In this document: one piece after another, positions 8,262 to 52,706 of the stretch
How the letters are laid out: each line of letters opens with the position of its first letter
Position numbering within the stretch: position 1 is the stretch's first letter
Source of the DNA: a virus
Direction: 5' to 3' (one strand)
IMG/VR virus record: IMGVR_UViG_3300000271_000010
Span: 8,958-72,957 of that record
Length of the DNA stretch: 64,000 nt
Program-made: the position numbers and the translations under genes
The notes under the pieces: generated by a model
Databases searched by the model: none
Told to the model about the DNA's origin: nothing
What the model saw: the letters and a program-made list of their open reading frames with translations, nothing else

Positions 8262-9125
8262 TCAGTTTTTCCACTTAGAGTTTTTGCGATCCACCGCGTA
8301 GCTGGTGTTCATGATCCCAAGCTCGGGGTTGCCCCGATAGTGTGGTGGCACCAGAACGACCGAAACATTCTTGTAGCGTGGGTGAACGAGGAAACGCATG
8401 TGCGCGCGGACGAAGTGCAAGCACCGCTCGGGGCCGTCGCCTTGGCCTTGTGTGATTTTGATGTCGTGCTTGTCGATGTTCAGACGCACTTCATGGTGTG
8501 GGTGGTAGGGATACTTCCCACGCTTGAGCCGACGGGCATTGAGCCGGCCGAGATCGACTTCGCGCGTTCGGATCAGTTTAGGGGAGTTCATAAACGCCAG
8601 AAGGGAAAGCAACAGAGGCTTAACCACATTCATGAAAGGAATCATTTGCGCTTGGTGTAATAAGGGGTCAGAAGCAACTGTAACACTTGGTTCAATCAGA
8701 TTGAACATTTCCCTCGTCACCATATCAACACCCATGCGCTCTGCTCGAATCCGGGCGACGTGGTGAAGGTCACAGAATTGCATGTGGTAGTTTTCCAGAT
8801 TCACCGATATAGGTATGTAAGCTATTTCATCGCCATTTTTCCAATCGATGATAATCAGAGCGTGTCCAGATACAACACTTCTGTTGTCCCCATGGAAATA
8901 GACGCCGAAATCTGCACCAGAGAATCCAAACTCCATCCAAGTATCAAAGTCAGGCCAGCAGGTATATTTAGATATTTCCCGCATCTTCTTTTCGCTAGCG
9001 GTTTTGAGTAGGTCCGATGCCGCTGAAACAACGTCTGTATGGATCACAACTTTGCGCGATCCTTCCATCAGTTTTATCAAAAGACCATCGTCCTTTGTCA
9101 TTTCGGTTAGGCGGTCAGCAAACAT
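8262..9125 (-). CDS. Hypothetical protein (287 aa)
   Basis: SD AGGAGA; C-terminal HFVRAHMR...PPHYRG motif; visibly more AT-rich than flanks. Confidence 0.75.
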   Translation of the reverse strand: MFADRLTEMTKDDGLLIKLMEGSRKVVIHTDVVSAASDLLKTASEKKMREISKYTCWPDFDTWMEFGFSGADFGVYFHGDNRSVVSGHALIIIDWKNGDEIAYIPISVNLENYHMQFCDLHHVARIRAERMGVDMVTREMFNLIEPSVTVASDPLLHQAQMIPFMNVVKPLLLSLLAFMNSPKLIRTREVDLGRLNARRLKRGKYPYHPHHEVRLNIDKHDIKITQGQGDGPERCLHFVRAHMRFLVHPRYKNVSVVLVPPHYRGNPELGIMNTSYAVDRKNSKWKN

Positions 9126-9450: not shown

Positions 9451-10920
9451 TCAGGCTTGATACACTGAACGCCACTTGGCGGCATTCTCTCGCACGGTCG
9501 GCCATTTCTGGAAGTTGCTGAGCGCTCCGTCTTCGTAGACAGTGCTGAGGTAGTTCACCTCACCGATCGCCAGTTCCTGTTCCAGAATGGTTTGGAGTTT
9601 GCCGTCGCCACCCCGTGCAACAACCGCAAATCTCCCTGCCTTCGAGGCCTTGGTGGGGTCCGTAGCAACTTCCTTGCGAACGTCGCGCGGCATCCCATCG
9701 ATGACCACGTAAGAGGTCTTCATCGCAAATCGGTGAGTGTCCCGCTCAGCTTCGTGGACCAACAGTCCTCCTCCCGAACCGAAGACCAGATTGTCCACTG
9801 ACCACTTGTGGTAGGTCACACGCTGGAGGATGCGGCGCAAGCTGTCCTCGTTGATCCCGTCGCCCTGAATGAGGCGCACATAATCAGGCAGGACCCGATA
9901 GCCCTTCTCGTTCACCGTCCAGCCAACGAGACTGCCGATCAGGTCGAGACAGTGGAGAACGTTGATGATCGGGTCGCCCGAGTCAGGACGCTGCACCAAA
10001 CGCATGGTGGTCTGACGTAGCCGATCGAGCAAACCGCCTTCCGATTCAGGTGTCAGCCACTTCCGGATTGCTTCATCCTGATCGTAGGTGTCGATCACCA
10101 CCGACACAGGATAGCGGCTGCCATCCGGCATCGTCTTATTGCCGTGTTCTTCCAGAATGTGTTCGAAGAACGCCTTTTCGTTCTCAGGTCCCCACGACGT
10201 GGTAACGGAGTGTTCGGTTGCCGGGATCGAATAACCGGGCATACCCTTCCACATATAGGCGTGCTTGGCGAACCGGATTCCCATCAGGTTATCGGTCACC
10301 TGAAAGTTCACGAGGTGTGCCATCCCGCCGATCGCAGCCGATTCGGTAGACGAAGCGCCACGAGCGCCGAAATCGACCATCAGCCAGTCAGCCAGTTCAG
10401 GTGTTCCGCTCTCGACCAGATAACGCTCCAGCAAGTTGTGCCAGCGCATCGACCGGGTTGCAATCGTCGTCGGATACCAAACAGCCCGGAGCAGCAAGGT
10501 CTCAACGTAAGCCGCTATCCCAGCACACTTTGGATCGGTCGATTCGACAGTTACCAGAACGGTTCCCTGATCAACCACAGTTCCTTCGGGCACTGCCTTG
10601 ACCCGGACCGGCAAGTAGCCATCGTGGTTCCAGACGATCCATTCCCAGATTGCCCGATTGAAGGGAATACCGTGGGCGGTCAGTTCCTCTTCGGCCTCAT
10701 CGATCATCTCAGTCGTTACCCGCTGCGAAAGATAGTAACGAAGAGCATATTGCAGACCGAAAAATTGGACGAAAGTGAATTGACCACCCTTACGGGCTTC
10801 GATGTAGCCGTAGCCGTTCTCGAACTTCGGGTGTTCGAAAGTCCAGTGAGTCGCCTTATAGGTGTCGGCGTTGAGGATCGGCTGGTTAAGCAGTTCCCCA
10901 ATGTTATTGATGAAATCCAT
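9451..10920 (-). CDS. nadV: Nicotinamide phosphoribosyltransferase (Nampt)
   Basis: NADTYKATH, DFGARG, PATEHS, VVIDTYD, RPDSGDP, IQGDG, FGSGGGL, FAMK motifs; ATG after GGAG. Confidence 0.95.
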   Translation of the reverse strand: MDFINNIGELLNQPILNADTYKATHWTFEHPKFENGYGYIEARKGGQFTFVQFFGLQYALRYYLSQRVTTEMIDEAEEELTAHGIPFNRAIWEWIVWNHDGYLPVRVKAVPEGTVVDQGTVLVTVESTDPKCAGIAAYVETLLLRAVWYPTTIATRSMRWHNLLERYLVESGTPELADWLMVDFGARGASSTESAAIGGMAHLVNFQVTDNLMGIRFAKHAYMWKGMPGYSIPATEHSVTTSWGPENEKAFFEHILEEHGNKTMPDGSRYPVSVVIDTYDQDEAIRKWLTPESEGGLLDRLRQTTMRLVQRPDSGDPIINVLHCLDLIGSLVGWTVNEKGYRVLPDYVRLIQGDGINEDSLRRILQRVTYHKWSVDNLVFGSGGGLLVHEAERDTHRFAMKTSYVVIDGMPRDVRKEVATDPTKASKAGRFAVVARGGDGKLQTILEQELAIGEVNYLSTVYEDGALSNFQKWPTVRENAAKWRSVYQA

Positions 10921-10930
10921 GTTAATCTCC

Positions 10931-12016
10931 TCAGAGGACCGAGTTGAAACGAGTCGCGAAGTGATCGACGACATTGAAGTGATCTTCGAACATCATCTCG
11001 CGGGTGACTTCATCGATCGGCCACCAGCGAGCGACGCTGGCATCGTCCTGACCCTGCACGAAGGGCAGATTAGTGCCCAGCGAGGTGAGGTCGAAGCCAT
11101 AGGCGACCGAGATCGTCCGCTTGCGGGTCGAGCGCCACGGATTGTCCAGCAACTTCTCGCCCTTACAAGCGAGGGCGAGGATCGCAATATGCACGTCGAT
11201 GTCGGTCTCTTCGACCAGTTCCCGAATCGCTGCCTGTTCGAAGGTTTCATCGATCCCGACATGCCCGCCGGGAAGAGCCCACAGGCCCTCGCCGGGCATC
11301 TGGCCGCGCCGCACCAGCAAGACGTGCCCGCCCATGATCACACAGGCATCAGCGGCCGTGAAATAGCGCGGATAGGGCGACTGCGAAAACTGGGCGAGGT
11401 AATCTTCCATGAAGTGGTATTCCCGGCGCATCTGATTGAAGCGCTCGGTGCTGACCCATTCTCGAAGGAAGCTGAAAGTCCCGCGAGGGAAGATCGTCTC
11501 GCCGGTCTGCTGCTGGAACCGGACAAGCATTTCGACCGCGTTATCTTCTTCGGGGATGTCGTAGAGAATCTTCCGAAGCTTTGTGGCGTCCAATGTCCCG
11601 TGAAGTTCTGGGCTGACAGGCGTCACATTGATCGAGCCCCACTGAGGGAACAAGGTCAGGTAGTAGGACGACCCGTCTTTCGAATAGCCGATCAACGCGA
11701 TGTCCGGATCAGGAATCGAGATCGCTTTGGCCTGATCGGTGACGCACTTCTGGACGGCGGCCACCCAGCGGTTGTCGTTCTCCTGATCTGGGATTCCGAG
11801 GATGAACACACGATCCTGCTCGGTGGGAGTCAGGCTGGCCCGGATCATTTCACGCACCTCTTCGAAGGTGAAGGGGTTGCGAAAATTGATAGGCTCGCCG
11901 ACCGATCCGACAATGATGAACAGGTATTGAGCCTTATGGAGGGCCTGCTTTACCACAGTCATGTGGCCGGCGTGGAATGGGCGCATACGCCCGGCGAAAA
12001 CGCAGATGTCATACAT
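10931..12016 (-). CDS. nadM: Bifunctional NMN adenylyltransferase / Nudix (ADP-ribose) hydrolase
   Basis: GRMRPFHAGH (HxGH), GIPDQENDNRW, Nudix box PGGHVGIDETFEQAAIRELVEET; SD AGGAGA. Confidence 0.93.
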   Translation of the reverse strand: MYDICVFAGRMRPFHAGHMTVVKQALHKAQYLFIIVGSVGEPINFRNPFTFEEVREMIRASLTPTEQDRVFILGIPDQENDNRWVAAVQKCVTDQAKAISIPDPDIALIGYSKDGSSYYLTLFPQWGSINVTPVSPELHGTLDATKLRKILYDIPEEDNAVEMLVRFQQQTGETIFPRGTFSFLREWVSTERFNQMRREYHFMEDYLAQFSQSPYPRYFTAADACVIMGGHVLLVRRGQMPGEGLWALPGGHVGIDETFEQAAIRELVEETDIDVHIAILALACKGEKLLDNPWRSTRKRTISVAYGFDLTSLGTNLPFVQGQDDASVARWWPIDEVTREMMFEDHFNVVDHFATRFNSVL

Positions 12017-15406: not shown

Positions 15407-15813
15407 GCAAAAAGATTCAGCCCTTCAAGCGCCAGCTTGCACCGGCTCTTGCGGCCAAAGACATAGGAGCATGTGTCGATCGGGAGCGTCTTGATGACAT
15501 GACCGTCACGGATCGGGTAGGTCGGATCATGGACAACCCCGGTCGTCAGGCCAAGACCGGTGGCGATCGCCGTGCGGCTCAGCATCTGCATGTGCGTGCA
15601 GCCCAGCACAATGCAGATTCCGAAACCGTATGCTTCCCCATACCACTCTGAGAAGTGCTTCCCGAAGCCGTCCGGGTCTTTATCAGCCCGGTGGACCGCG
15701 TTACCAATGAACTGGGTGCCAGCGTGGTTGGATTGCGCCATCGCCTTACCCGGCACATAATCAGGCACATCAGTTCGCATCAGAACGTAGAGGATCATCG
15801 GGTCATCGGTCAT
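15403..15813 (-). CDS. Peptidyl-tRNA hydrolase Pth2-like protein
   Basis: LYVLMRTD...PGKAMAQSNHA, GICIVL, VVHDPT..., DTC..FG pattern of the PTH2 family. Confidence 0.65.
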   Translation of the reverse strand: MTDDPMILYVLMRTDVPDYVPGKAMAQSNHAGTQFIGNAVHRADKDPDGFGKHFSEWYGEAYGFGICIVLGCTHMQMLSRTAIATGLGLTTGVVHDPTYPIRDGHVIKTLPIDTCSYVFGRKSRCKLALEGLNLFA

Positions 15814-18055
15814 TCTTGAGTTCCTTCATATAGTCATCCGGACGCCAGTTGTTGTGCCGAACCATTGACTGCCGGCTGCGGCCATTCTGGCGCGTGATGC
15901 CACAGTGATAGATATGCGACAAATCTTCCACAGCAGGACACGAGAGCGTCTTTCTGGCTTGGGCGAGGCCGCGCTTCGACAGATAGAAGCTCACGTCGAA
16001 GCTGACCTGATTCCACGGGTTGTCCAGTCGCCATTCCAGTGGGTCGATACGCTGGAGCAAATAGTTCCCAACGTAAGCATCATCGCCGGGGTTCCAGTGC
16101 TGGAGATAGACCGGCATGTCATCGACTTCCATACCAAGAAGCCAAGCCAGATCGGCCGGGCAGCCGGGCGTTATAGCAAGCTGCCATGACGATTTTGCGC
16201 CGGTCAGGTAACAGCGGTGGTAATAAGGTTGCCGGTTGTGTCCTTGATCGAACGTCACCAGTGGGTCGCCAGTGGTTCGGCTATATTGATAGCTCTCAAG
16301 CTTTCGATTGAGATCGTTGAGACACGCAAACTGATACCGCTCCAGCTTCTTCTCTTCCGGGTCAGAATCCTTGTAGTTGGCTCCAAAGATTCCGAAGCGG
16401 TTGCGGCTCTTCTCCACTTGCTCGTGATGGGCATAGGCCAGCAGCAGATCAGCGCGTTCGATGATCCGTTCTTTGAACAGCTTGAGAATACGCGGACGCT
16501 CAGCTTCGAACTCGGCATCGGCTTCTCGCTGGATTCCGCGTGCGAAGTTGTGGCGAGCGATGAACTTGCGGTCAGCGTCGATCTGTTCACGGGTCCCGAA
16601 CAAGGTGGCATCCACACGCTCCAGCCCATAGTTGCGGGTGTCACTTCCATGCTCGAAGTGTGAAAGAGGTGTCTCACCGTGGAAGAGGTGAGATGTCGTG
16701 GTAGCCTTTTTCACTTCGTCGCCGACAGGGACGATCATACTCTCACCCTTACTCCACTTAGGCTTGGGTGTGGTGTCCCCTGAGGAAATGAACAATTGTG
16801 AGCCGTCGTTCATACCGATCTGGTTGAGGACTTCGACAGGCACACGCTCGCCGTAGCGCTCTTCCATCCACCGGTTGGCTCCATAGCTGCTCTCGTGGTC
16901 CTTCCAACGCGCTCCGATTGCCTTCTCGTCGAGTGCATCGGTCATGACATCCTTGGGTGTCAGGATCGGAAGTGACAGCGGCTGGTAGCCAACCACCGGG
17001 AGGTTGCTCTGAGCAGCCCGAGCGATGAGGGTGTTCTGATCTTCCAGACGAATCATCTCGTTGGTGTATGACAGAGCGCGGGGTTCGATCGGCTTGCGCC
17101 AATAGTTCTCCACGATCAGGTCGAACATCAGCGTCGTCCAGACGATCTGCCCGAGTTCAAGGTCTTCCAGCTTCTTCAACTCGAAGTGGTGCGGCTGGTG
17201 TGGCACCAGTCCCTTTGCCTGCGACTCGCGATACTTGTCGTGATAGGGGTTACCCTTCTCGTCATACTTGATGGCGAGCAACTGATAGGGGAACCAGTTC
17301 TTCGAGATACGTTCGTCGAACTCCCGGTCCGGGCGGCGCGACATTGAACGGCCGAGCGGGTGGGCATATTCCTGCGAATCGGTCAGGAAGATCAGGTTAC
17401 CACCGTTGCGGATTGCGAAGGCAAAATAGCTGTGAAGCTCGTCCGGATCGCGGATCAGGTTCAGCGACACACCACTAGGCATCCCGCAGACATGCTCGAT
17501 CATCGAGTTGATGTTCCAGTATCCGAACACCATCTTGTTGTAGACCGGCTTGACCGTAGTGGGATCGACCTCGCCGGCAAGGAATTGATCGGCCCGCAAG
17601 CGGTTGGCTGACTTGAGCGCGTCGCGTCGGATGATTGCCAGATGCGCGCGATCCTCGAAGAACTTGTTGATCCGATCGGATTCGATCCCGTAAGCCAACA
17701 GGGCCTGTCGGGTCGCTTCGAAGAACTCGTCGGCTGGCTGCATGATTTCAGGAGCGCGGATGAGTTTCTTGAACTCACGCACCTTATCCATGTAGTCGAA
17801 AATCTTGTCCGGGTCTTCGTCGAACTCATGAACCGAGACCTTGGCTTCCTTGAAGTAGGAAGTAGAGAAGGCGTCGAGAAGCAAGTAGGTCGTGATGAAC
17901 GACTTGTCGTAGTCCATGGACTGCTCCAATTCGTCGTTCATGGTTTTGAGACCCCACGTCCGCATGTTCCACGACTTCGCGTTGGGGTCCATACCAGTTA
18001 GGTCGAGCCACAGCGCGATAGCCCGGTTGAAGTGTTCAGCCGATGTGATCATCAA
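15803..18055 (-). CDS. Large hypothetical protein (750 aa)
   Basis: Longest ORF, phage-like codon use, TGATGA overlap; no motif recognised. Confidence 0.85.
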   Translation of the reverse strand: MMITSAEHFNRAIALWLDLTGMDPNAKSWNMRTWGLKTMNDELEQSMDYDKSFITTYLLLDAFSTSYFKEAKVSVHEFDEDPDKIFDYMDKVREFKKLIRAPEIMQPADEFFEATRQALLAYGIESDRINKFFEDRAHLAIIRRDALKSANRLRADQFLAGEVDPTTVKPVYNKMVFGYWNINSMIEHVCGMPSGVSLNLIRDPDELHSYFAFAIRNGGNLIFLTDSQEYAHPLGRSMSRRPDREFDERISKNWFPYQLLAIKYDEKGNPYHDKYRESQAKGLVPHQPHHFELKKLEDLELGQIVWTTLMFDLIVENYWRKPIEPRALSYTNEMIRLEDQNTLIARAAQSNLPVVGYQPLSLPILTPKDVMTDALDEKAIGARWKDHESSYGANRWMEERYGERVPVEVLNQIGMNDGSQLFISSGDTTPKPKWSKGESMIVPVGDEVKKATTTSHLFHGETPLSHFEHGSDTRNYGLERVDATLFGTREQIDADRKFIARHNFARGIQREADAEFEAERPRILKLFKERIIERADLLLAYAHHEQVEKSRNRFGIFGANYKDSDPEEKKLERYQFACLNDLNRKLESYQYSRTTGDPLVTFDQGHNRQPYYHRCYLTGAKSSWQLAITPGCPADLAWLLGMEVDDMPVYLQHWNPGDDAYVGNYLLQRIDPLEWRLDNPWNQVSFDVSFYLSKRGLAQARKTLSCPAVEDLSHIYHCGITRQNGRSRQSMVRHNNWRPDDYMKELKNDR

Positions 18056-47181: not shown

Positions 47182-47390
47182 ACCGGGTTCACAATTTGCG
47201 CAAGGATGAAGCACGACACGATGACCTGAGTGCCGAGGGCAAGGCTCAGGATGGCGCGGCGGCTCGGAGGTGTGACTTTCCACCAAGCACGCGGATCGTC
47301 AGTGAGAACCATACGCAGTGAAAGCGTGATGACGCCGATCATGCACAGCAAGACCAAAAAGCGGGCGAGCATGTCGATGGTCATTTCCAT
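47178..47390 (-). CDS. Small 2-TM membrane protein
   Basis: Two hydrophobic helices. Confidence 0.65.
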   Translation of the reverse strand: MEMTIDMLARFLVLLCMIGVITLSLRMVLTDDPRAWWKVTPPSRRAILSLALGTQVIVSCFILAQIVNPV

Positions 47391-47391
47391 C

Positions 47392-47580
47392 TCAGATGTC
47401 CCAGAGGCCGGCGATCATAGCGACCACAATAGCTGCTATCGTGACCAGCATCAGAAAGCCGCCTACCAATGGGTAATTTTCGCTCCGGTTGGTGTAGCGG
47501 TTGTCCTTGTCGGCAACCATCATGACCCAAGCAGTCACGCCGCAGAGGATGGCAACGGTGAGGGCAATCTTGATCGTCAT
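47392..47580 (-). CDS. Small 2-TM membrane protein
   Basis: SD AGGAGA; first gene after cassette. Confidence 0.7.
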   Translation of the reverse strand: MTIKIALTVAILCGVTAWVMMVADKDNRYTNRSENYPLVGGFLMLVTIAAIVVAMIAGLWDI

Positions 47581-47608
47581 GTTTAGCTGTCTCCTGTTGT
47601 GTGTGACT

Positions 47609-47637
47609 GGCGTAGGACGATTCTTCCGGGTCGTCAA
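47609..47637 (-). promoter_or_regulatory. Repeated boxed promoter cassette
   Basis: TTGACG-ACCC-GGAAGAATCGTCC-TACGC. Confidence 0.85.
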
Positions 47638-47640
47638 CTG

Positions 47641-47859
47641 CTATTCTGACAGATAGCCCATCAGCCGAGATACCGCCCCGTTCCATGTCTTGGAGGCTAC
47701 CTCAGCCTCGCCATCGATGTAGAATGCGAACGAGCCACCCGGCTGGCGAGCAGTGGTGATCGTCTTGTCCCCCACCCGCGCTTCGAGAAACAAACCTTTC
47801 CGGCCAGTGATCTCCACGCTCGCCGGTGGGTGTGGGTTAAGGTTAATGTGACGGGACAT
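47641..47859 (-). CDS. Hypothetical protein
   Basis: ATG after GAGGA. Confidence 0.65.
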   Translation of the reverse strand: MSRHINLNPHPPASVEITGRKGLFLEARVGDKTITTARQPGGSFAFYIDGEAEVASKTWNGAVSRLMGYLSE

Positions 47860-47867
47860 AAATTTCC

Positions 47868-48065
47868 TCAGTGTGGGTCTTCCAAGGCGTTCCGGATCGC
47901 CGCGATGCTACCGTAGAGCGCCTGCATCTCGTAATACGTGTCCTTGTCGTAGGTGTTTCCACAGTCACCGCAGGCCAAAAGCTGGTCGTATTCTTCGATT
48001 GCTGCGGTGATGGCTGGGAGATGTTTTTCGACGGCTTCCCGGAGGGAATCAGTTGAGGTATTCAT
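47868..48065 (-). CDS. Hypothetical protein
   Basis: ATG after GGAGA. Confidence 0.6.
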   Translation of the reverse strand: MNTSTDSLREAVEKHLPAITAAIEEYDQLLACGDCGNTYDKDTYYEMQALYGSIAAIRNALEDPH

Positions 48066-48081
48066 AGCGGTCTCCGTGGTG

Positions 48082-49347
48082 TTAGGTGGGCTTGATGATG
48101 CATGTCCCACCTATGTAAGGGACAAGAACAGGTGGGATCATGATCGAGCCATCTTCCATCTGATAGTTCTCCATGATCGCAGCAACGGTCCGGCCGACGG
48201 CCAGCCCAGACGCGTTGAGGGTGTGGACGAACTTGGCTTTGTCCTTGTGATGAGCCTTGTAGCGTGTGTGCATCCGACGGGCTTGGAAGTCACCGCAGTT
48301 CGAGCAGGATGCGACTTCAAGCCAGCGTCCCATACCCGGCATCCATACTTCCAGATCGTTGGTGATCCGGGCCCCGAAGCCGGTATCACCAGCACATAGG
48401 ATCAGCCGGCGATAGCGCAGTTCCAACAGGTCCAGAATGCTTTCCGCCGCTCCCACCAAGCGCTCCAGTTCGTAGGCGCTCTTTTCCGGTGTGGTGATGC
48501 TGACAAGTTCGCACTTCTCGAACTGGTGCTGGCGGATCAATCCTTGGCTATCTCGGCCCGCCGCTCCTGCTTCCAAGCGGAAGCAAGTAGTCAGGGCCGT
48601 CATTCGAATAGGCAAAGCTTCTTCGGAGAGTATCGTCCCCATGACACTGGCAGTCAGAGGCACCTCGCCGGTAGGGATCAGCCAGTGCCCGGTCGTCGTC
48701 CGGAAGCTATCGTTGGCGAACTTGGGGAGCTTGTCCGTGCCAAACATTGCATCTTCCTTCACCAAGACAGGAGGCACACACTCCACAAAACCATTCAGCT
48801 TGGTATGAGTGTCAAGCATGAACTGCCCTACCGCGCGATGAAGCCGCGCTATGTCGCCGCGAAGGAAGGTAAAACGCGAGCCGGACAGCATGACGCCAGT
48901 TGGCGAATCAAGGCCCAGCCTGATTCCCAGTTCGGCGTGATGCTTCGGCTTGTAGTCGAACAACCGCGTAGCCCCGGCTGTCGCCCGTAGGAAGTTGTCT
49001 TCTTCCGTAGCTCCTTCTGGGACAGCTTCATCCAGAATATTGGGAAGCTCCCACAGAATTTGGTTGAGGTCCGCGTCGTAGTCGTCGGCCAACTCCCGCT
49101 CGGCGGTTATCTTAGTGTTGAGATCGCGCACCTTTGCCTTGGCGATTTCCTCCCAGTCCGATCCGCCAGCGCCGATTTCCTTGCTGATCCGGTTGCGATC
49201 GGTGAGAATTTCTTGAGCGCGTGCCTTGTGATGGCGAACGTATTCGTCCAGCGACAGGATTTCGGACGACACAGGCGGAAGTCCGCGCCGCGCCATCTGG
49301 CGATCGAACTCAGCCGGGTCAGCCCGGATCATGCGAATGTCATGCAT
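48082..49347 (-). CDS. serS: Seryl-tRNA synthetase (full length, 421 aa)
   Basis: N-terminal coiled-coil arm (MHDIRMIR...), LIPTGEVP, CFRLEAG, RQHQFEKCE (motif 2), DLEVW, SCSNCGDFQARR, HTLNASGLAVGR (motif 3), ENYQ. Confidence 0.95.
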   Translation of the reverse strand: MHDIRMIRADPAEFDRQMARRGLPPVSSEILSLDEYVRHHKARAQEILTDRNRISKEIGAGGSDWEEIAKAKVRDLNTKITAERELADDYDADLNQILWELPNILDEAVPEGATEEDNFLRATAGATRLFDYKPKHHAELGIRLGLDSPTGVMLSGSRFTFLRGDIARLHRAVGQFMLDTHTKLNGFVECVPPVLVKEDAMFGTDKLPKFANDSFRTTTGHWLIPTGEVPLTASVMGTILSEEALPIRMTALTTCFRLEAGAAGRDSQGLIRQHQFEKCELVSITTPEKSAYELERLVGAAESILDLLELRYRRLILCAGDTGFGARITNDLEVWMPGMGRWLEVASCSNCGDFQARRMHTRYKAHHKDKAKFVHTLNASGLAVGRTVAAIMENYQMEDGSIMIPPVLVPYIGGTCIIKPT

Positions 49348-49628
49348 CAGTCGAGATTCCGTCCGAGAGGGTTATGTTCGAAGACGTGCCAGACGTAGCC
49401 ACCATCATGGATCGTGCCGTGGAAGTGGTGGGTGTTGGGAACATCTTCACCAGTGGCGAACACTTCAAAAGTCCGATCCTCCACTTCACCACCGTGTTGC
49501 GGAGTCAAGGCCCATAGCGAGTGCCGTTCGTTCGGGTCGAGACCGACATGCATGATCCGACAACCGACCGGCATCTGAATAGTGGACAGGCTGCTGATAT
49601 AGTGTTTGAGGATGCGGTGAGGAATCAT
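49347..49628 (-). CDS. Conserved phage hypothetical protein
   Basis: LWAL...RTFEVFATG...GTI...YVWHVFE motif; ATGA overlap. Confidence 0.75.
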   Translation of the reverse strand: MIPHRILKHYISSLSTIQMPVGCRIMHVGLDPNERHSLWALTPQHGGEVEDRTFEVFATGEDVPNTHHFHGTIHDGGYVWHVFEHNPLGRNLD

Positions 49629-49906
49629 TCTTCGGGCTCCCAGTCTTCGATGTTGTCGCCCGTTTCCGGGTCTTCCCACTCCAGCCACTGACCATCTTCG
49701 AAGACTTCGAGGCCGCCGGCGTTGGAGTAGTCGGGTTTGATGTTGTTCCTGTATTGAAACTGATCGTAATAGGCTAGGGTGCCTATCAGCTTTTGTGCTT
49801 CCCTAGGGGAATCCACTGGAGAGTAAAACACATCCCCTGTGGTGACTTGAGGCATCCACCAGACGCGTAGATCACCATTCTTCAAGTGCTTCATGAAGTA
49901 GGCCAT
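49625..49906 (-). CDS. P22 gp17-like protein
   Basis: LRVWWMPQV...LAYYDQFQYRNNIKPDYSNAGGLE closely matches recalled P22 gp17 motif. Confidence 0.78.
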   Translation of the reverse strand: MAYFMKHLKNGDLRVWWMPQVTTGDVFYSPVDSPREAQKLIGTLAYYDQFQYRNNIKPDYSNAGGLEVFEDGQWLEWEDPETGDNIEDWEPEE

Positions 49907-49907
49907 A

Positions 49908-50165
49908 TCAATGAAGCTCCACAAGCCAGTCGAAGACTTCATCAGTATCGTCGGCGTCTTCACAGTCGATCGTGATGGTCGTTCCGGTCCGGCCGATAAA
50001 CAGCGCTTGCTCCGTGAATTGTGCGGGGATGTCAGGAGTCCCACGCTGCTTTACACAATAGGCATTCAGGATTTGGGCGGCTTCCCACATCCCCCGGCCC
50101 CGGCAGTCCGAGTCGTCAGCGAGCGCCTTTGCGATGGCTGTGATGGCTTCGTGAGCGTCCTTCAT
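49908..50165 (-). CDS. Hypothetical protein
   Basis: SD AAGGA. Confidence 0.6.
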   Translation of the reverse strand: MKDAHEAITAIAKALADDSDCRGRGMWEAAQILNAYCVKQRGTPDIPAQFTEQALFIGRTGTTITIDCEDADDTDEVFDWLVELH

Positions 50166-50172
50166 GATTTCC

Positions 50173-50292
50173 TTACCAGATTTGATCGAGCATACAGGCG
50201 GCGATGCCGACGAACACACCAAGAACATACCAAGCGAAGATGTGGCCTCGCGTTGTGCGGACGATCTCACCGGCCCAGTCAAAAATGTTCAC
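50173..50292 (-). CDS. 39-aa single-TM peptide
   Basis: GTG after GAGGA; ...HIFAWYVLGVFVGIAACMLDQIW*. Confidence 0.5.
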   Translation of the reverse strand: MNIFDWAGEIVRTTRGHIFAWYVLGVFVGIAACMLDQIW

Positions 50293-50591
50293 AATTCCTC
50301 CATCAGCTTCTGCCGCACCCACGCGAGGCGCTTCGGGTTTTCGTGAACCAGACGGAGATCGGATTCTTCGAAATAATCCCGTTTACCGTTGAAAGGCATA
50401 TCGCAATCATGCTCGAACTCCTCCATGAAGAGTTCTTCCAGTTCGTAAGAGATAGCTGCCGAACGCTTGCGAGCATGAAAACACAGCCCAAACCGACGGC
50501 TGAAACCGCCCGCGTAGACATCCCCTTCGGGAGCCCCGCTGGTAGCCCAGTTGTGCCAGTCGGCGAGGAAGGTGCTGAGAGCGGGGCTCAT
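50289..50591 (-). CDS. Hypothetical protein
   Basis: ATGA overlap. Confidence 0.65.
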   Translation of the reverse strand: MSPALSTFLADWHNWATSGAPEGDVYAGGFSRRFGLCFHARKRSAAISYELEELFMEEFEHDCDMPFNGKRDYFEESDLRLVHENPKRLAWVRQKLMEEL

Positions 50592-50992
50592 GCGCCGACG
50601 CTCTCGGGCGGCGTGTAAATCAGGCTGAATTGTCGAGCAACCTTCATCGCACCATTTTCCACCTCAGGGAGATAACCATCAGGGTTGTTGATGTCGCACT
50701 GGATGCTGGGGAAGTCGTGTAATTCCTTCTGACAGGTCCGCAGGAATCCTACGTCCACGGAGCGGACCACACCTAGTGTCTCCGCAATCTCTTCGAAGCA
50801 GCTACCATCCTCGAATTTCGGCTGATAGATTTCGTCCGGGATGAGAATGCCGACAGCGCATTTGAGTCCGCCGGGAGTGCGATACCGGCAAGAACCAAAC
50901 TCGGTCGTCGCGGGGACTTGCTGTTCCCGGAGGTGTTTCAACATGGTGTCAAACACCTTCTGGCGGTCGAAATTAGCGAGGGGGCCGGTCAT
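50588..50992 (-). CDS. Family A paralog (A4)
   Basis: QKVFDTMLKHLREQ..P...CRYR...GLKCAVGILIPD...FL...Q..LHD. Confidence 0.8.
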   Translation of the reverse strand: MTGPLANFDRQKVFDTMLKHLREQQVPATTEFGSCRYRTPGGLKCAVGILIPDEIYQPKFEDGSCFEEIAETLGVVRSVDVGFLRTCQKELHDFPSIQCDINNPDGYLPEVENGAMKVARQFSLIYTPPESVGA

Positions 50993-51318
50993 GCTGTGAC
51001 TTCCTCAATCAGATGTTCAGTCGCATCCTTGATGCCCGGCTCTTCGGCTGGCACGCCGAACTTGCCTTCCATCTTCATGACGATGAACTTCTGGCCGGGG
51101 TTCTTGAGCGCCAGCCGCTCAGCTTCCGCCATGGCGAGTTCGCGGGCCGGGTGGTAGAACTGAGGCCGGCGGCCGAACTTGGTCCAGATACACCACGAGC
51201 CGATCTCTTCGAAGGCGGCGCGGGGAGGGCTTGCCATCTCGTCGTTCGACGTAAGCCCCTTACCCATGATGATCATGCCTGCTTCATTTTCGGTCTTGGT
51301 AGGAATGTAGTCGGTCAC
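50989..51318 (-). CDS. Hypothetical protein
   Basis: AMAEAERLA.KNPG.KF motif. Confidence 0.7.
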   Translation of the reverse strand: MTDYIPTKTENEAGMIIMGKGLTSNDEMASPPRAAFEEIGSWCIWTKFGRRPQFYHPARELAMAEAERLALKNPGQKFIVMKMEGKFGVPAEEPGIKDATEHLIEEVTA

Positions 51319-51605
51319 AGTTTCATCTCCTTTTGAGGGTTGTCGATTTCAGCGAGGAAGTCCTTGATGGCCCGTCCAATACCGCGAAGACGCGGGAGTT
51401 CCGTCAGATCACCAGCCCGCTCGGCCCGCTCGATTTCCTCTTGGAAGATTTCGAGCCCATGACGCTTGATTAGGATAAAACCAGCAGCCCGGTCAGAATC
51501 TGCAACGGCTTGTGCCAACCTGTTTTCGAAGTCGCCGCAGTTGCCTTCGACGCCATAGGAAAAAGCGATCGCGTTCGCTCGACGTTGCTTGATGCTATCT
51601 TCCAT
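51315..51605 (-). CDS. Hypothetical protein
   Basis: TGATG overlap. Confidence 0.65.
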   Translation of the reverse strand: MEDSIKQRRANAIAFSYGVEGNCGDFENRLAQAVADSDRAAGFILIKRHGLEIFQEEIERAERAGDLTELPRLRGIGRAIKDFLAEIDNPQKEMKL

Positions 51606-51892
51606 CAGAACTTCCGCTTAGCATTGATGAGAGACACCTTGGTGCCCGGTTGGAGAAGTGTGGCGGCGTGCCCTTCAACTTCGCAGACACGGATCAGGCC
51701 AGAGACTTCGACTAGGATCATGGTGCCCTTCTTCACGAAGTCAGGTCCTCGGAAGCCGGGGTAGGTTTCCGTCCATTCGGTAGCGGCTCTGATGACACCT
51801 GTTTCTTTAGGAGTCATGCATTTCGTAGGGATCGGTTCTTTGGCGCAAGCGGACAGGCCGAGGATCGCCGACAGAACGATGAGGCGATTCAT
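51605..51892 (-). CDS. Small lipoprotein
   Basis: MNRLIVLSAILGLSAC lipobox. Confidence 0.72.
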   Translation of the reverse strand: MNRLIVLSAILGLSACAKEPIPTKCMTPKETGVIRAATEWTETYPGFRGPDFVKKGTMILVEVSGLIRVCEVEGHAATLLQPGTKVSLINAKRKF

Positions 51893-51963
51893 GCGGTCTG
51901 TGCCAGCAGATACAAGACTGCTACGGTAAGAAGCGCGAAGTGAATTTTCTGAATGGTGTTCAT
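51889..51963 (-). CDS. 24-aa hydrophobic peptide
   Basis: MNTIQKIHFALLTVAVLYLLAQTA*; SD GAGGAG; first gene after cassette; ATGA overlap. Confidence 0.6.
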   Translation of the reverse strand: MNTIQKIHFALLTVAVLYLLAQTA

Positions 51964-51994
51964 TAGCGATCGTCTCCTCTGTTGCTGTGCGACT

Positions 51995-52023
51995 CGTCTA
52001 GGACAAATCTTCCGCTTCGTCAA
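51995..52023 (-). promoter_or_regulatory. Repeated boxed promoter cassette
   Basis: TTGACG-AAGC-GGAAGATTTGTCC-TAGAC. Confidence 0.85.
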
Positions 52024-52026
52024 GCA

Positions 52027-52233
52027 TCAAAGATTATCCTCATAGTCGTCGATCTGCTCCAGCAATTCAGCCCACGTCGCGGCGGTGAATTGCAGGCAGT
52101 CGAGATCGGGGCCGCCGAGACAGGCACAGTAGCCTTCGCCGGTCCAGTATTCGTGCTGCCACGAATAGACAGCTTCCCAGCCGCGATACCAGACCGCTTC
52201 CTCGCCAATCGGTTCGCGTGGGTGGTCGGTCAT
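52027..52233 (-). CDS. Hypothetical protein
   Basis: ATGA overlap. Confidence 0.65.
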   Translation of the reverse strand: MTDHPREPIGEEAVWYRGWEAVYSWQHEYWTGEGYCACLGGPDLDCLQFTAATWAELLEQIDDYEDNL

Positions 52234-52706
52234 ACCTTAGCTACCTGCCGGCAGTCCTGTTGGAGTTCCGCAAGACCAGCCATGAGATCATCAACAACGG
52301 CACCAACATCCTCTTCGTCGAAGTGAGGCAGCAGCGTCTTGGTAATCATCTGCCGTAGCGGATCGACCGTCTCCGTCTCCGTAATCATTCCGCGATCACG
52401 GAGCCACTTGATCTTGTCTTCGATCGATGTAGGGTCCAACCAGTCACGCCACATAGCCTCGCTAAGAGTCCGACCATCAGCGATGGCGTCCAACATTTGG
52501 CGTTCCTTGAAGACCGTCCAGTCGCGATATGCGACGATGCACAGATGGAGTTGATTGGGCCAATCGCGCCATACCGACGGGCTCGCTTCTTCGATGCGCC
52601 GTTCGGTTGTTCCGTCCCCCCATCTTATCTCTACGTCGTGTCCCTTAGGAACGGGACACACAGGGCTTCCGTTATGCTTGATCCATCCGGGTTCTCTAGG
52701 CGTCAT
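52230..52706 (-). CDS. Hypothetical protein
   Basis: WIKHNGSPVCPV...IVAYR N-terminal motif; ATGA overlap. Confidence 0.7.
   Translation of the reverse strand: MTPREPGWIKHNGSPVCPVPKGHDVEIRWGDGTTERRIEEASPSVWRDWPNQLHLCIVAYRDWTVFKERQMLDAIADGRTLSEAMWRDWLDPTSIEDKIKWLRDRGMITETETVDPLRQMITKTLLPHFDEEDVGAVVDDLMAGLAELQQDCRQVAKV

Follow-up and report, generated by a model that had tools for sequence, protein, structure and literature searches.

An intact, conserved seryl-tRNA synthetase gene in a lineage of large siphoviruses of marine Erythrobacteraceae

Here we analyzed a seryl-tRNA synthetase (SerRS) gene, serS, in a 64,000-nucleotide stretch of viral DNA (IMG/VR record IMGVR_UViG_3300000271_000010, positions 8,958 to 72,957; hereafter the window). 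The open reading frame (ORF) occupies exactly window positions 48082-49347 on the minus strand and runs from an ATG start to a TAA stop through 421 codons with no internal stops. It encodes an intact, canonical bacterial-type class IIa SerRS. Judging from its relatives, its phylogeny and its conserved residues, the gene very likely goes back to an old capture from an alphaproteobacterium close to the Sphingomonadales. The recipient would have been an ancestor of a single sub-lineage of Lacusarx/Erythrobacter-type siphoviruses, and the gene has been kept since then under purifying selection, very likely as a competent enzyme.

A sequence-only reading of this locus had described a full-length SerRS with the class II motifs and the tRNA-binding arm, and comparisons with profiles and structures bear this out. 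The NCBIfam serS equivalog TIGR00414 matches end to end (approximately positions 1-412 of 418) with 428.7 bits against a cut-off of 301.65, and Pfam places Seryl_tRNA_N at residues 1-104 (64 bits) and tRNA-synt_2b at residues 222-395 (131 bits). The protein does not belong to the methanogen-type, zinc-dependent SerRS, since TIGR00415 (cut-off 490) gave only 30 bits and PRK00960 (cut-off 611) only 29. In a search of solved structures, the best full-length matches were bacterial SerRS, namely Aquifex 2DQ3 (E = 2e-111) and E. coli 6R1M (E = 3e-109), and identity to solved bacterial SerRS is 45% over the full length (E = 2e-111). An AlphaFold2 model built from a 40-sequence alignment has a mean predicted local distance difference test score (pLDDT) of 94 and a predicted template modeling score (pTM) of 0.90. 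It superimposes on E. coli SerRS 6r1m_A, arm included, with a template modeling (TM) score of 0.96 and a root-mean-square deviation of 1.6 Å. The arm is modeled as a long helical hairpin (helices 27-60 and 66-100, pLDDT >90), and the Pfam match, model and superposition agree in showing the N-terminal antiparallel helical tRNA arm of bacterial-type SerRS. At 104 residues it is close to the median of 106-108 in cellular SerRS. The sole disordered, low-pLDDT stretch of the model is the motif-2 loop, residues 262-265.

Class II motif 2 (fRxE) and motif 3 are both present, with R257, E259 and R386 invariant across phage and cellular sequences. The residues expected to bind serine, Mg and ATP (T226, E228, E280, E344, S347 and S380) are also present and stand in invariant columns; for T. 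thermophilus SerRS, we take the Thr225/Glu227-type loop, Glu279, Glu345, Ser348 and Thr380 to be the serine- and Mg/ATP-binding residues. E. coli residue numbers given for the phage protein were taken from a HMMER alignment. From both sequence and model, the phage SerRS is apparently catalytically competent, and we infer that it is a working enzyme.

The gene is a resident of phage genomes. In a collection of 5.8 billion sequences, the closest proteins were five at 72-61% identity, followed by more than 100 Erythrobacteraceae/Sphingomonadales SerS at 56-59%. The contigs that carry these five orthologues are all phage-type, with lengths of 170-176 kb in two cases, and share a gene order consisting of a GP17-like gene (PF17420), a DUF7352 gene (PF24043), usually an ORF of 40-44 amino acids, SerRS, and an ORF of 145-183 amino acids. 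The window holds the same GP17-DUF7352-SerRS block. Scanning viral contigs with the clade alignment yielded further clade members in IMG/VR, whereas scanning them with the single SerRS protein gave no match. Altogether, orthologues are found in at least six other metagenomic phages, and the same synteny on at least seven independent contigs (ENA, JGI, Logan and IMG/VR), including the 100%-complete, 176.5-kb IMG/VR relative G001. Among seven phage orthologues, pairwise ratios of non-synonymous to synonymous substitution rates (dN/dS) range from 0.085 to 0.38, with 0.085 coming from the least saturated pair; by this measure the phage SerRS is kept under purifying selection.

The sequence-only reading had held host contamination to be unlikely, and these contigs confirm that judgment. 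A search for a possible source of the phage-type gene in cells or prophages covered 185,579 species genomes, within the limits of two clade-derived peptide patterns, and the idea was rejected because only ordinary alphaproteobacterial SerS at 52-55% identity were returned. Given the clade synteny, the dN/dS values, the phage-like GC content at third codon positions (GC3) and these distant cellular matches, host contamination and recent capture are excluded. Nothing but the general rarity of aminoacyl-tRNA synthetase (aaRS) genes in phages of such size speaks for contaminating host DNA, chimeric assembly or a gene picked up from the host very recently. The recurrence of this gene with the same phage neighbors, identities of at most 59% to any cellular SerRS, a phage-like composition (serS GC3 0.68 versus 0.63 for phage ORFs) and the overlap of the serS start with a phage gene leave such an explanation with next to no probability.

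The phylogeny that the sequence-only reading had proposed as a check, a maximum-likelihood tree of 81 SerRS sequences, places the seven phage SerRS in a single clade (SH-aLRT 100). This clade lies inside an alphaproteobacterial group (97) together with the Sphingomonadales clade (99) and Acetobacteraceae, with no resolved sister. The best cellular matches are from Erythrobacteraceae (56-59%), and C279 and E277 are common to the phage clade and the Sphingomonadales. The GenBank-annotated SerRS of Brevundimonas jumbo phages and another IMG/VR SerRS (L047) fall elsewhere in the tree, indicating several independent captures by phages.

The same reading had quoted six motif variants and taken them as substitutions around the active site. 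All six are truly present: TGE at residues 226-228, FRLE at 256-259, KCE at 278-280, TND at 329-331, WLEVAS at 342-347 and NAS at 378-380. We compared them across an alignment of 248 full-length SerRS, comprising 6 phage sequences and 242 cellular sequences (114 from Sphingomonadales, and 128 each representing a cluster at 50% identity). As that reading had also stated, the key residues are retained (T226, E228, R257, E259, R272, K278, E280, D331, E333, E344, S347, S349, N378, S380 and R386). In the cellular SerRS, 41 columns reach at least 97% conservation, and all six phage proteins keep 39 of these, every catalytic residue included; one of the two exceptions is a Gly within a surface region with gaps, the other an exchange between D and E.

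The variants themselves differ in kind. C279 of KCE is what most Sphingomonadales have (103 of 114), a mark of ancestry rather than a deviation. Position 258 of FRLE is variable (S 53, A 24, R 24, K 16 and L 4 among the 128 diverse representatives), and within the clade its Leu is private to the studied phage. G227 of TGE is fixed across the phage clade and occurs in 15 of the 128 diverse SerRS. In WLEVAS, position 343 is hydrophobic throughout the clade (Arg in 86% of cellular SerRS; Leu or Val in 26 of the 128), and V345 and A346 are fixed, position 346 being Ser in 95% of cellular SerRS. A379 of NAS is likewise fixed in the clade at a position that is Gly in 96% of cellular SerRS. N330 of TND is again private to the studied phage; all other clade members, and 113 of the 128 diverse SerRS, have Tyr or Phe. 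Against a balanced consensus reference of the 128 diverse and 10 Sphingomonadales SerRS, the phage enzyme departs in 2 of 81 columns conserved at 85% or more, compared with 4 for the median bacterial SerRS, placing it at the 27th percentile. By this alignment, the phage SerRS looks unusual only beside its very uniform Sphingomonadales cousins, and the idea of an unusual active site is not supported.

Some of these states recur in other phages. Brevundimonas phages Bambus and Papperlapapp also have G227, V343 and A346, L047 has A346, and two of three rare A346 carriers that were looked up are on phage contigs. General convergent evolution of the active site in phage SerRS was considered and rejected on a wider IMG/VR sample, collected with search patterns outside the signature columns. 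Its 25 SerRS genes are internal to large viral contigs, many of 240-608 kb, and show A346 in 2, A379 in 3 and a hydrophobic residue at 343 in 1, which is near background; most carry the canonical A-Y-R-S-G. The signature is thus lineage-specific and not a general phage adaptation. In cellular SerRS its four states (G227, hydrophobic 343, A346 and A379) were uncorrelated with one another (Fisher p ≥0.19), and a literature search gave no usable account of what E. coli R354, S357 and G390 each do.

Overall, the phage enzyme resembles cellular bacterial SerS (E. coli SerRS 6R1M and Erythrobacteraceae) in its length, its two domains (arm and class II core) and all catalytic residues, and it shares 56-59% identity as well as C279 and E277 with the SerS of Erythrobacter, Qipengyuania and Altererythrobacter. 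It differs from them in being virus-encoded, in forming its own long-stem clade and in its private combination of G227, hydrophobic 343, V345, A346 and A379, and its arm is 2-4 residues shorter than in Sphingomonadales SerS.

The window belongs to one 132,380-bp contig of 55% GC, which encodes a large terminase, portal, 1,590-aa tape measure protein, two tail proteins of approximately 1,190 aa, a primase-helicase, an RtcB tRNA ligase and a nicotinamide phosphoribosyltransferase. Its large terminase shares 93.5% identity with the terminase of Erythrobacter phage XM05 (152 kb), and the genome is that of a large tailed phage of Erythrobacter-like marine bacteria. CheckV estimates the contig at 78% completeness, and its right end lies in tail genes. 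The relative G001 (CheckV 100% complete, with 27 tRNAs in a cluster spanning the contig ends) starts at the same point as the studied contig, approximately 260 nt ahead of tRNA-Ser(CGA), and the XM05 record also breaks there. Because of this common start with a complete genome, the 78% completeness and the end in tail genes, the contig is the left three-quarters of a siphovirus genome of approximately 175 kb, truncated on the right only. The part beyond it, approximately 40 kb, holds the DNA polymerase/ribonucleotide reductase (RNR) replication module and approximately 17 tRNAs that are missing from the contig. All three independent assemblies break inside the tRNA array, approximately 190-270 nt upstream of tRNA-Ser(CGA), which suggests that the common break point is a real physical genome terminus.

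Several other genes of the contig deserve mention. The RtcB-type tRNA ligase (phrog_1075, 1.4e-144) is encoded at contig positions 7683-8924 (+), between the ten-tRNA cluster/primase region and the start of the window; together with the tRNA array it suggests an investment in the repair or replacement of cleaved tRNAs. The nicotinamide phosphoribosyltransferase (window 9451-10974, minus strand; phrog_448, 1e-135) is half of an NAD-salvage pair, which is consistent with hosts that have NAD-depleting defenses. The largest ORF of the window (15803-18055, minus strand, 750 aa) has no Pfam or PHROG match.

Within this phage group the gene is patchily distributed. A full-length SerRS homologue is present in G001, whereas XM05, vB_EliS-L02, Lacusarx and RXM, searched as complete genomes, gave no match at E ≤1. 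The syntenic region of XM05 lacks the whole GP17-DUF7352-SerRS block together with its neighbors, so a clean single-gene serS indel relative to XM05 was rejected. Absence from close cultured relatives indicates that SerRS is conditionally useful and non-essential.

Two of these relatives carry a different gene with a synthetase label. In the description of Citromicrobium phage RXM, g121 is reported to encode SerRS (PMC8953757). This protein has 189 aa and no Pfam match, and its gene adjoins MazG and RNR genes. XM05 gp48 lies at the same position, is labeled histidyl-tRNA synthetase and also has no Pfam match. Both are a mini-SerRS core of approximately 190 aa, which G001 holds as well (69% identical to XM05 gp48) at a locus apart from its full-length serS; the full-length SerRS is therefore an additional, distinct gene. 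The two proteins share SerRS-type class II catalytic domain ancestry and the same phage group, and both occur in G001. The mini-core, however, has no tRNA arm, is under half the length and lies beside RNR and MazG, and the full-length SerRS finds nothing at E ≤1 in XM05 or RXM though both carry it. Conversely, the phage SerRS is not a member of the mini-core/MazG pair, having 421 aa, an arm and no MazG neighbor. The "seryl-" and "histidyl-tRNA synthetase" labels on RXM g121 and XM05 gp48 are misleading and do not provide a trustworthy synthetase annotation.

The sequence-only reading had noted that the window contains no tRNA genes, and had suggested a SerRS tuned to phage tRNAs. ARAGORN indeed found no tRNAs in the window, but run on the whole contig it found ten at the left end (positions 187-2164), the first of which is tRNA-Ser(CGA), approximately 9 kb upstream of the window. 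This tRNA (contig positions 187-283) is 97 nt long and of canonical type-2 shape. Its acceptor stem reads GGAGCGG, the CCA end is encoded, and the 8-bp variable arm is bulged. It is near-identical in G001. TCG makes up 25% of the serine codons of the phage. Across the group, tRNA-Ser(CGA) is present in all five phages examined and SerRS in only two, and SerRS-less vB_EliS-L02 has the same long-arm tRNA-Ser(CGA) of 98 nt, so the phage tRNA needs no phage SerRS. At one position of the array, the two SerRS-positive phages have Thr(GGT) and the three SerRS-negative phages have tRNA-Ser(GCT), though two versus three genomes are too few to interpret. A dedicated pairing of the enzyme with an unusually long-armed tRNA that the host enzyme handles poorly would fit the length of tRNA-Ser(CGA), which exceeds that of the group's other phage tRNA-Ser genes (87-90 nt), and its near-identity in SerRS-positive G001. 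Set against the distribution just described, the canonical GGAG acceptor stem and type-2 shape, and an enzyme arm of normal length, such tuning is very unlikely, and this part of the sequence-only reading is not upheld.

The immediate neighborhood of serS and the segments of the protein discussed here are listed in Table 1. The TGA stop of the DUF7352 gene overlaps the serS ATG as TGATG, and this overlap suggests that the two genes are translationally coupled. A sigma-70 promoter scan of positions 47300-52300 gave no sites, and terminator-like matches there were at chance level, so we make no claim on the transcription unit.

Table 1. Position of serS, its protein segments, the neighboring genes and the mini-core genes of related phages. 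Coordinates refer to the window unless another record is named.
Feature	Position	Strand	Evidence and remarks
serS coding sequence, protein P0001, 421 aa + TAA	48082..49347	-	TIGR00414; AlphaFold2; TM 0.96 to 6r1m_A
N-terminal tRNA-binding arm, residues 1-104, helical hairpin	49036..49347	-	Pfam Seryl_tRNA_N; model
T226-G227-E228 loop (E. coli T237-A238-E239)	48664..48672	-	T and E invariant; G227 clade-wide
Class II motif 2, F256-R257-L258-E259...D266	48550..48582	-	R257 and E259 invariant; L258 private, variable column
N330 (E. coli Y341)	48358..48360	-	Sole phage-private change that affects a fairly conserved aromatic column
W342-L343-E344-V345-A346-S347-C348-S349 strand (E. coli Y353-S360)	48301..48324	-	E344, S347 and S349 invariant; hydrophobic 343, V345 and A346 clade-wide
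Class II motif 3, T376-L-N378-A379-S380...R386	48190..48222	-	N378, S380 and R386 invariant; A379 (usually G) clade-wide
DUF7352 gene upstream of serS	49347..49688	-	Pfam PF24043, 3.3e-18
GP17-like gene (PF17420, "superinfection exclusion gene product 17"), opening the GP17-DUF7352-SerRS block	49625..50044	-	Pfam; conserved order
Small ORF downstream of serS	47868..48064	-	GGAGA ribosome-binding site 17 nt past the serS stop; no family match
Mini-SerRS core, approximately 190 aa	RXM g121, L077:5541-6110; XM05 gp48, L009:29214-29807; G001, 145167-145772		Same positional gene

The phage SerRS would be made early and translated together with the accessory GP17-like and DUF7352 genes. As a homodimer, it would activate serine with ATP to form seryl-adenylate and then transfer the serine to tRNA-Ser, with the N-terminal helical arm binding the long variable arm of the tRNA for recognition. 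Since bacterial SerRS does not read the anticodon, the enzyme would be expected to charge host isoacceptors as well as phage tRNA-Ser(CGA). Together with approximately 27 tRNAs and the RtcB tRNA ligase, it would form one piece of a translation-support kit, and its most likely role would be to uphold the supply of seryl-tRNA during infection while synthesis of the host enzyme is shut down or limiting. In vivo, this could mean a larger supply, an advantage when serine is limiting, or protection where the host has a system that blocks serylation. That large phages carry host-related synthetases is established (PMC7162821), and the reading of the gene as a working SerRS agrees with this.

Some observations weigh against the reading of serS as an anciently captured gene for an ordinary, working synthetase. 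N330 takes the place of an aromatic residue found in approximately 90% of SerRS, and no cellular sequence among the 242 has G227, hydrophobic 343, A346 and A379 in combination. The stem of the phage clade is long, at 0.40 substitutions per site versus 0.13 for the Sphingomonadales stem, and the four-residue combination and this branch may together signify changed kinetics or binding. The enzyme is also dispensable in the phage group, as XM05, vB_EliS-L02, Lacusarx and RXM do without it, and its benefit is conditional. The combination and the long stem would also suit a neofunctionalised SerRS, in which pocket changes (G227, A346, A379 and N330) alter amino-acid or nucleotide specificity or confer a role outside translation. 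Non-translational relatives of SerRS, such as amino acid:carrier-protein ligases and the phage mini-core, have no tRNA arm. Here the arm and all catalytic residues are kept, no domain has been lost or gained, the substitutions are conservative, small-for-small exchanges, and purifying selection extends over the whole length, making neofunctionalisation highly improbable.

A counter-defense role, which the sequence-only reading had proposed as a resistant back-up, is unlikely. As a back-up enzyme, the phage SerRS would bypass a host SerRS or seryl-tRNA pool disabled by a toxin or by abortive infection, with the clade-wide changes providing insensitivity. RtcB and tRNA arrays are tools against tRNA-cleaving defenses, and this phage carries both RtcB and a large array. 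In addition, serS lies in the same early accessory block as a gene of the GP17-like "superinfection exclusion" family and is apparently translationally coupled with it, its signature positions flank catalytic residues, and alphaproteobacterial-type or large phage lineages have captured SerRS at least three times independently. We know of no toxin that targets SerRS itself. MenT3 does act on tRNA-Ser (PMC11541572), but a tRNA 3' end extended by this toxin could not be repaired by a new SerRS. Each signature residue also occurs singly in ordinary cellular SerRS, the overall divergence is no greater than that of the median bacterial SerRS, the 25 other viral SerRS mostly lack the signature, and close relatives infect Erythrobacter without serS. 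It is quite unlikely, in turn, that the signature (G227, a hydrophobic residue for Arg at 343, V345, A346 and A379), absent from cellular SerRS and partly mirrored in Brevundimonas-phage SerRS, is an adaptation that makes the enzyme functionally distinct from that of the host. If it were, the signature could give insensitivity to a host factor or inhibitor that stops seryl-tRNA formation in abortive infection, and the phage SerRS would be a counter-defense synthetase and more than an extra copy. We retain the reading of an old alphaproteobacterial capture kept as a competent enzyme.

The nearest described parallels are the Brevundimonas jumbo phages vB_BpoS-Kikimora, Bambus and Papperlapapp (Dolichocephalovirinae), which also encode a full-length, host-related aaRS in a tRNA-rich phage, as do huge phages (Al-Shayeb et al. 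2020, PMC7162821). The Brevundimonas-phage SerRS are, however, only 42-44% identical to the SerRS studied here, form separate clades in the tree and represent independent acquisitions. Their neighbor is GcrA rather than GP17/DUF7352, and the genomes of Brevundimonas and huge phages are 312-357 kb or more, compared with approximately 175 kb here, which is under the usual 200 kb jumbo threshold. In the Brevundimonas phages and a related metagenomic contig, the homologue of the GcrA cell-cycle regulator is encoded one or two genes after SerRS, a conserved arrangement with no obvious rationale.

Huge phages of >200 kb and giant viruses are well known to encode aaRS, but in cultured phages such genes are rare. 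Across 50,697 phage records, credible full-length SerRS were confined to the Brevundimonas jumbo phages and a handful of further records. Most "phage" records with SerRS are short and unannotated (86 Ralstonia phage YO... records, plus Listeria, Enterococcus and Staphylococcus), and in IMG/VR many SerRS genes coincide with the very edge of a provirus. Both kinds resemble host serS swept in when prophage boundaries were called, rather than phage genes. Phage-encoded aaRS are already known, and the finding itself will not surprise a specialist. What is notable is mainly the sub-jumbo siphovirus lineage and the contrast with its cultured relatives. The analysis also clears an annotation trap, as the synthetase labels of RXM and XM05 refer to the mini-core. 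A SerRS is stably inherited under selection, as judged by dN/dS, in a siphovirus lineage of marine Erythrobacteraceae with genomes of approximately 175 kb, and the close cultured relatives without SerRS provide a natural presence/absence contrast for what one extra synthetase gives a phage.

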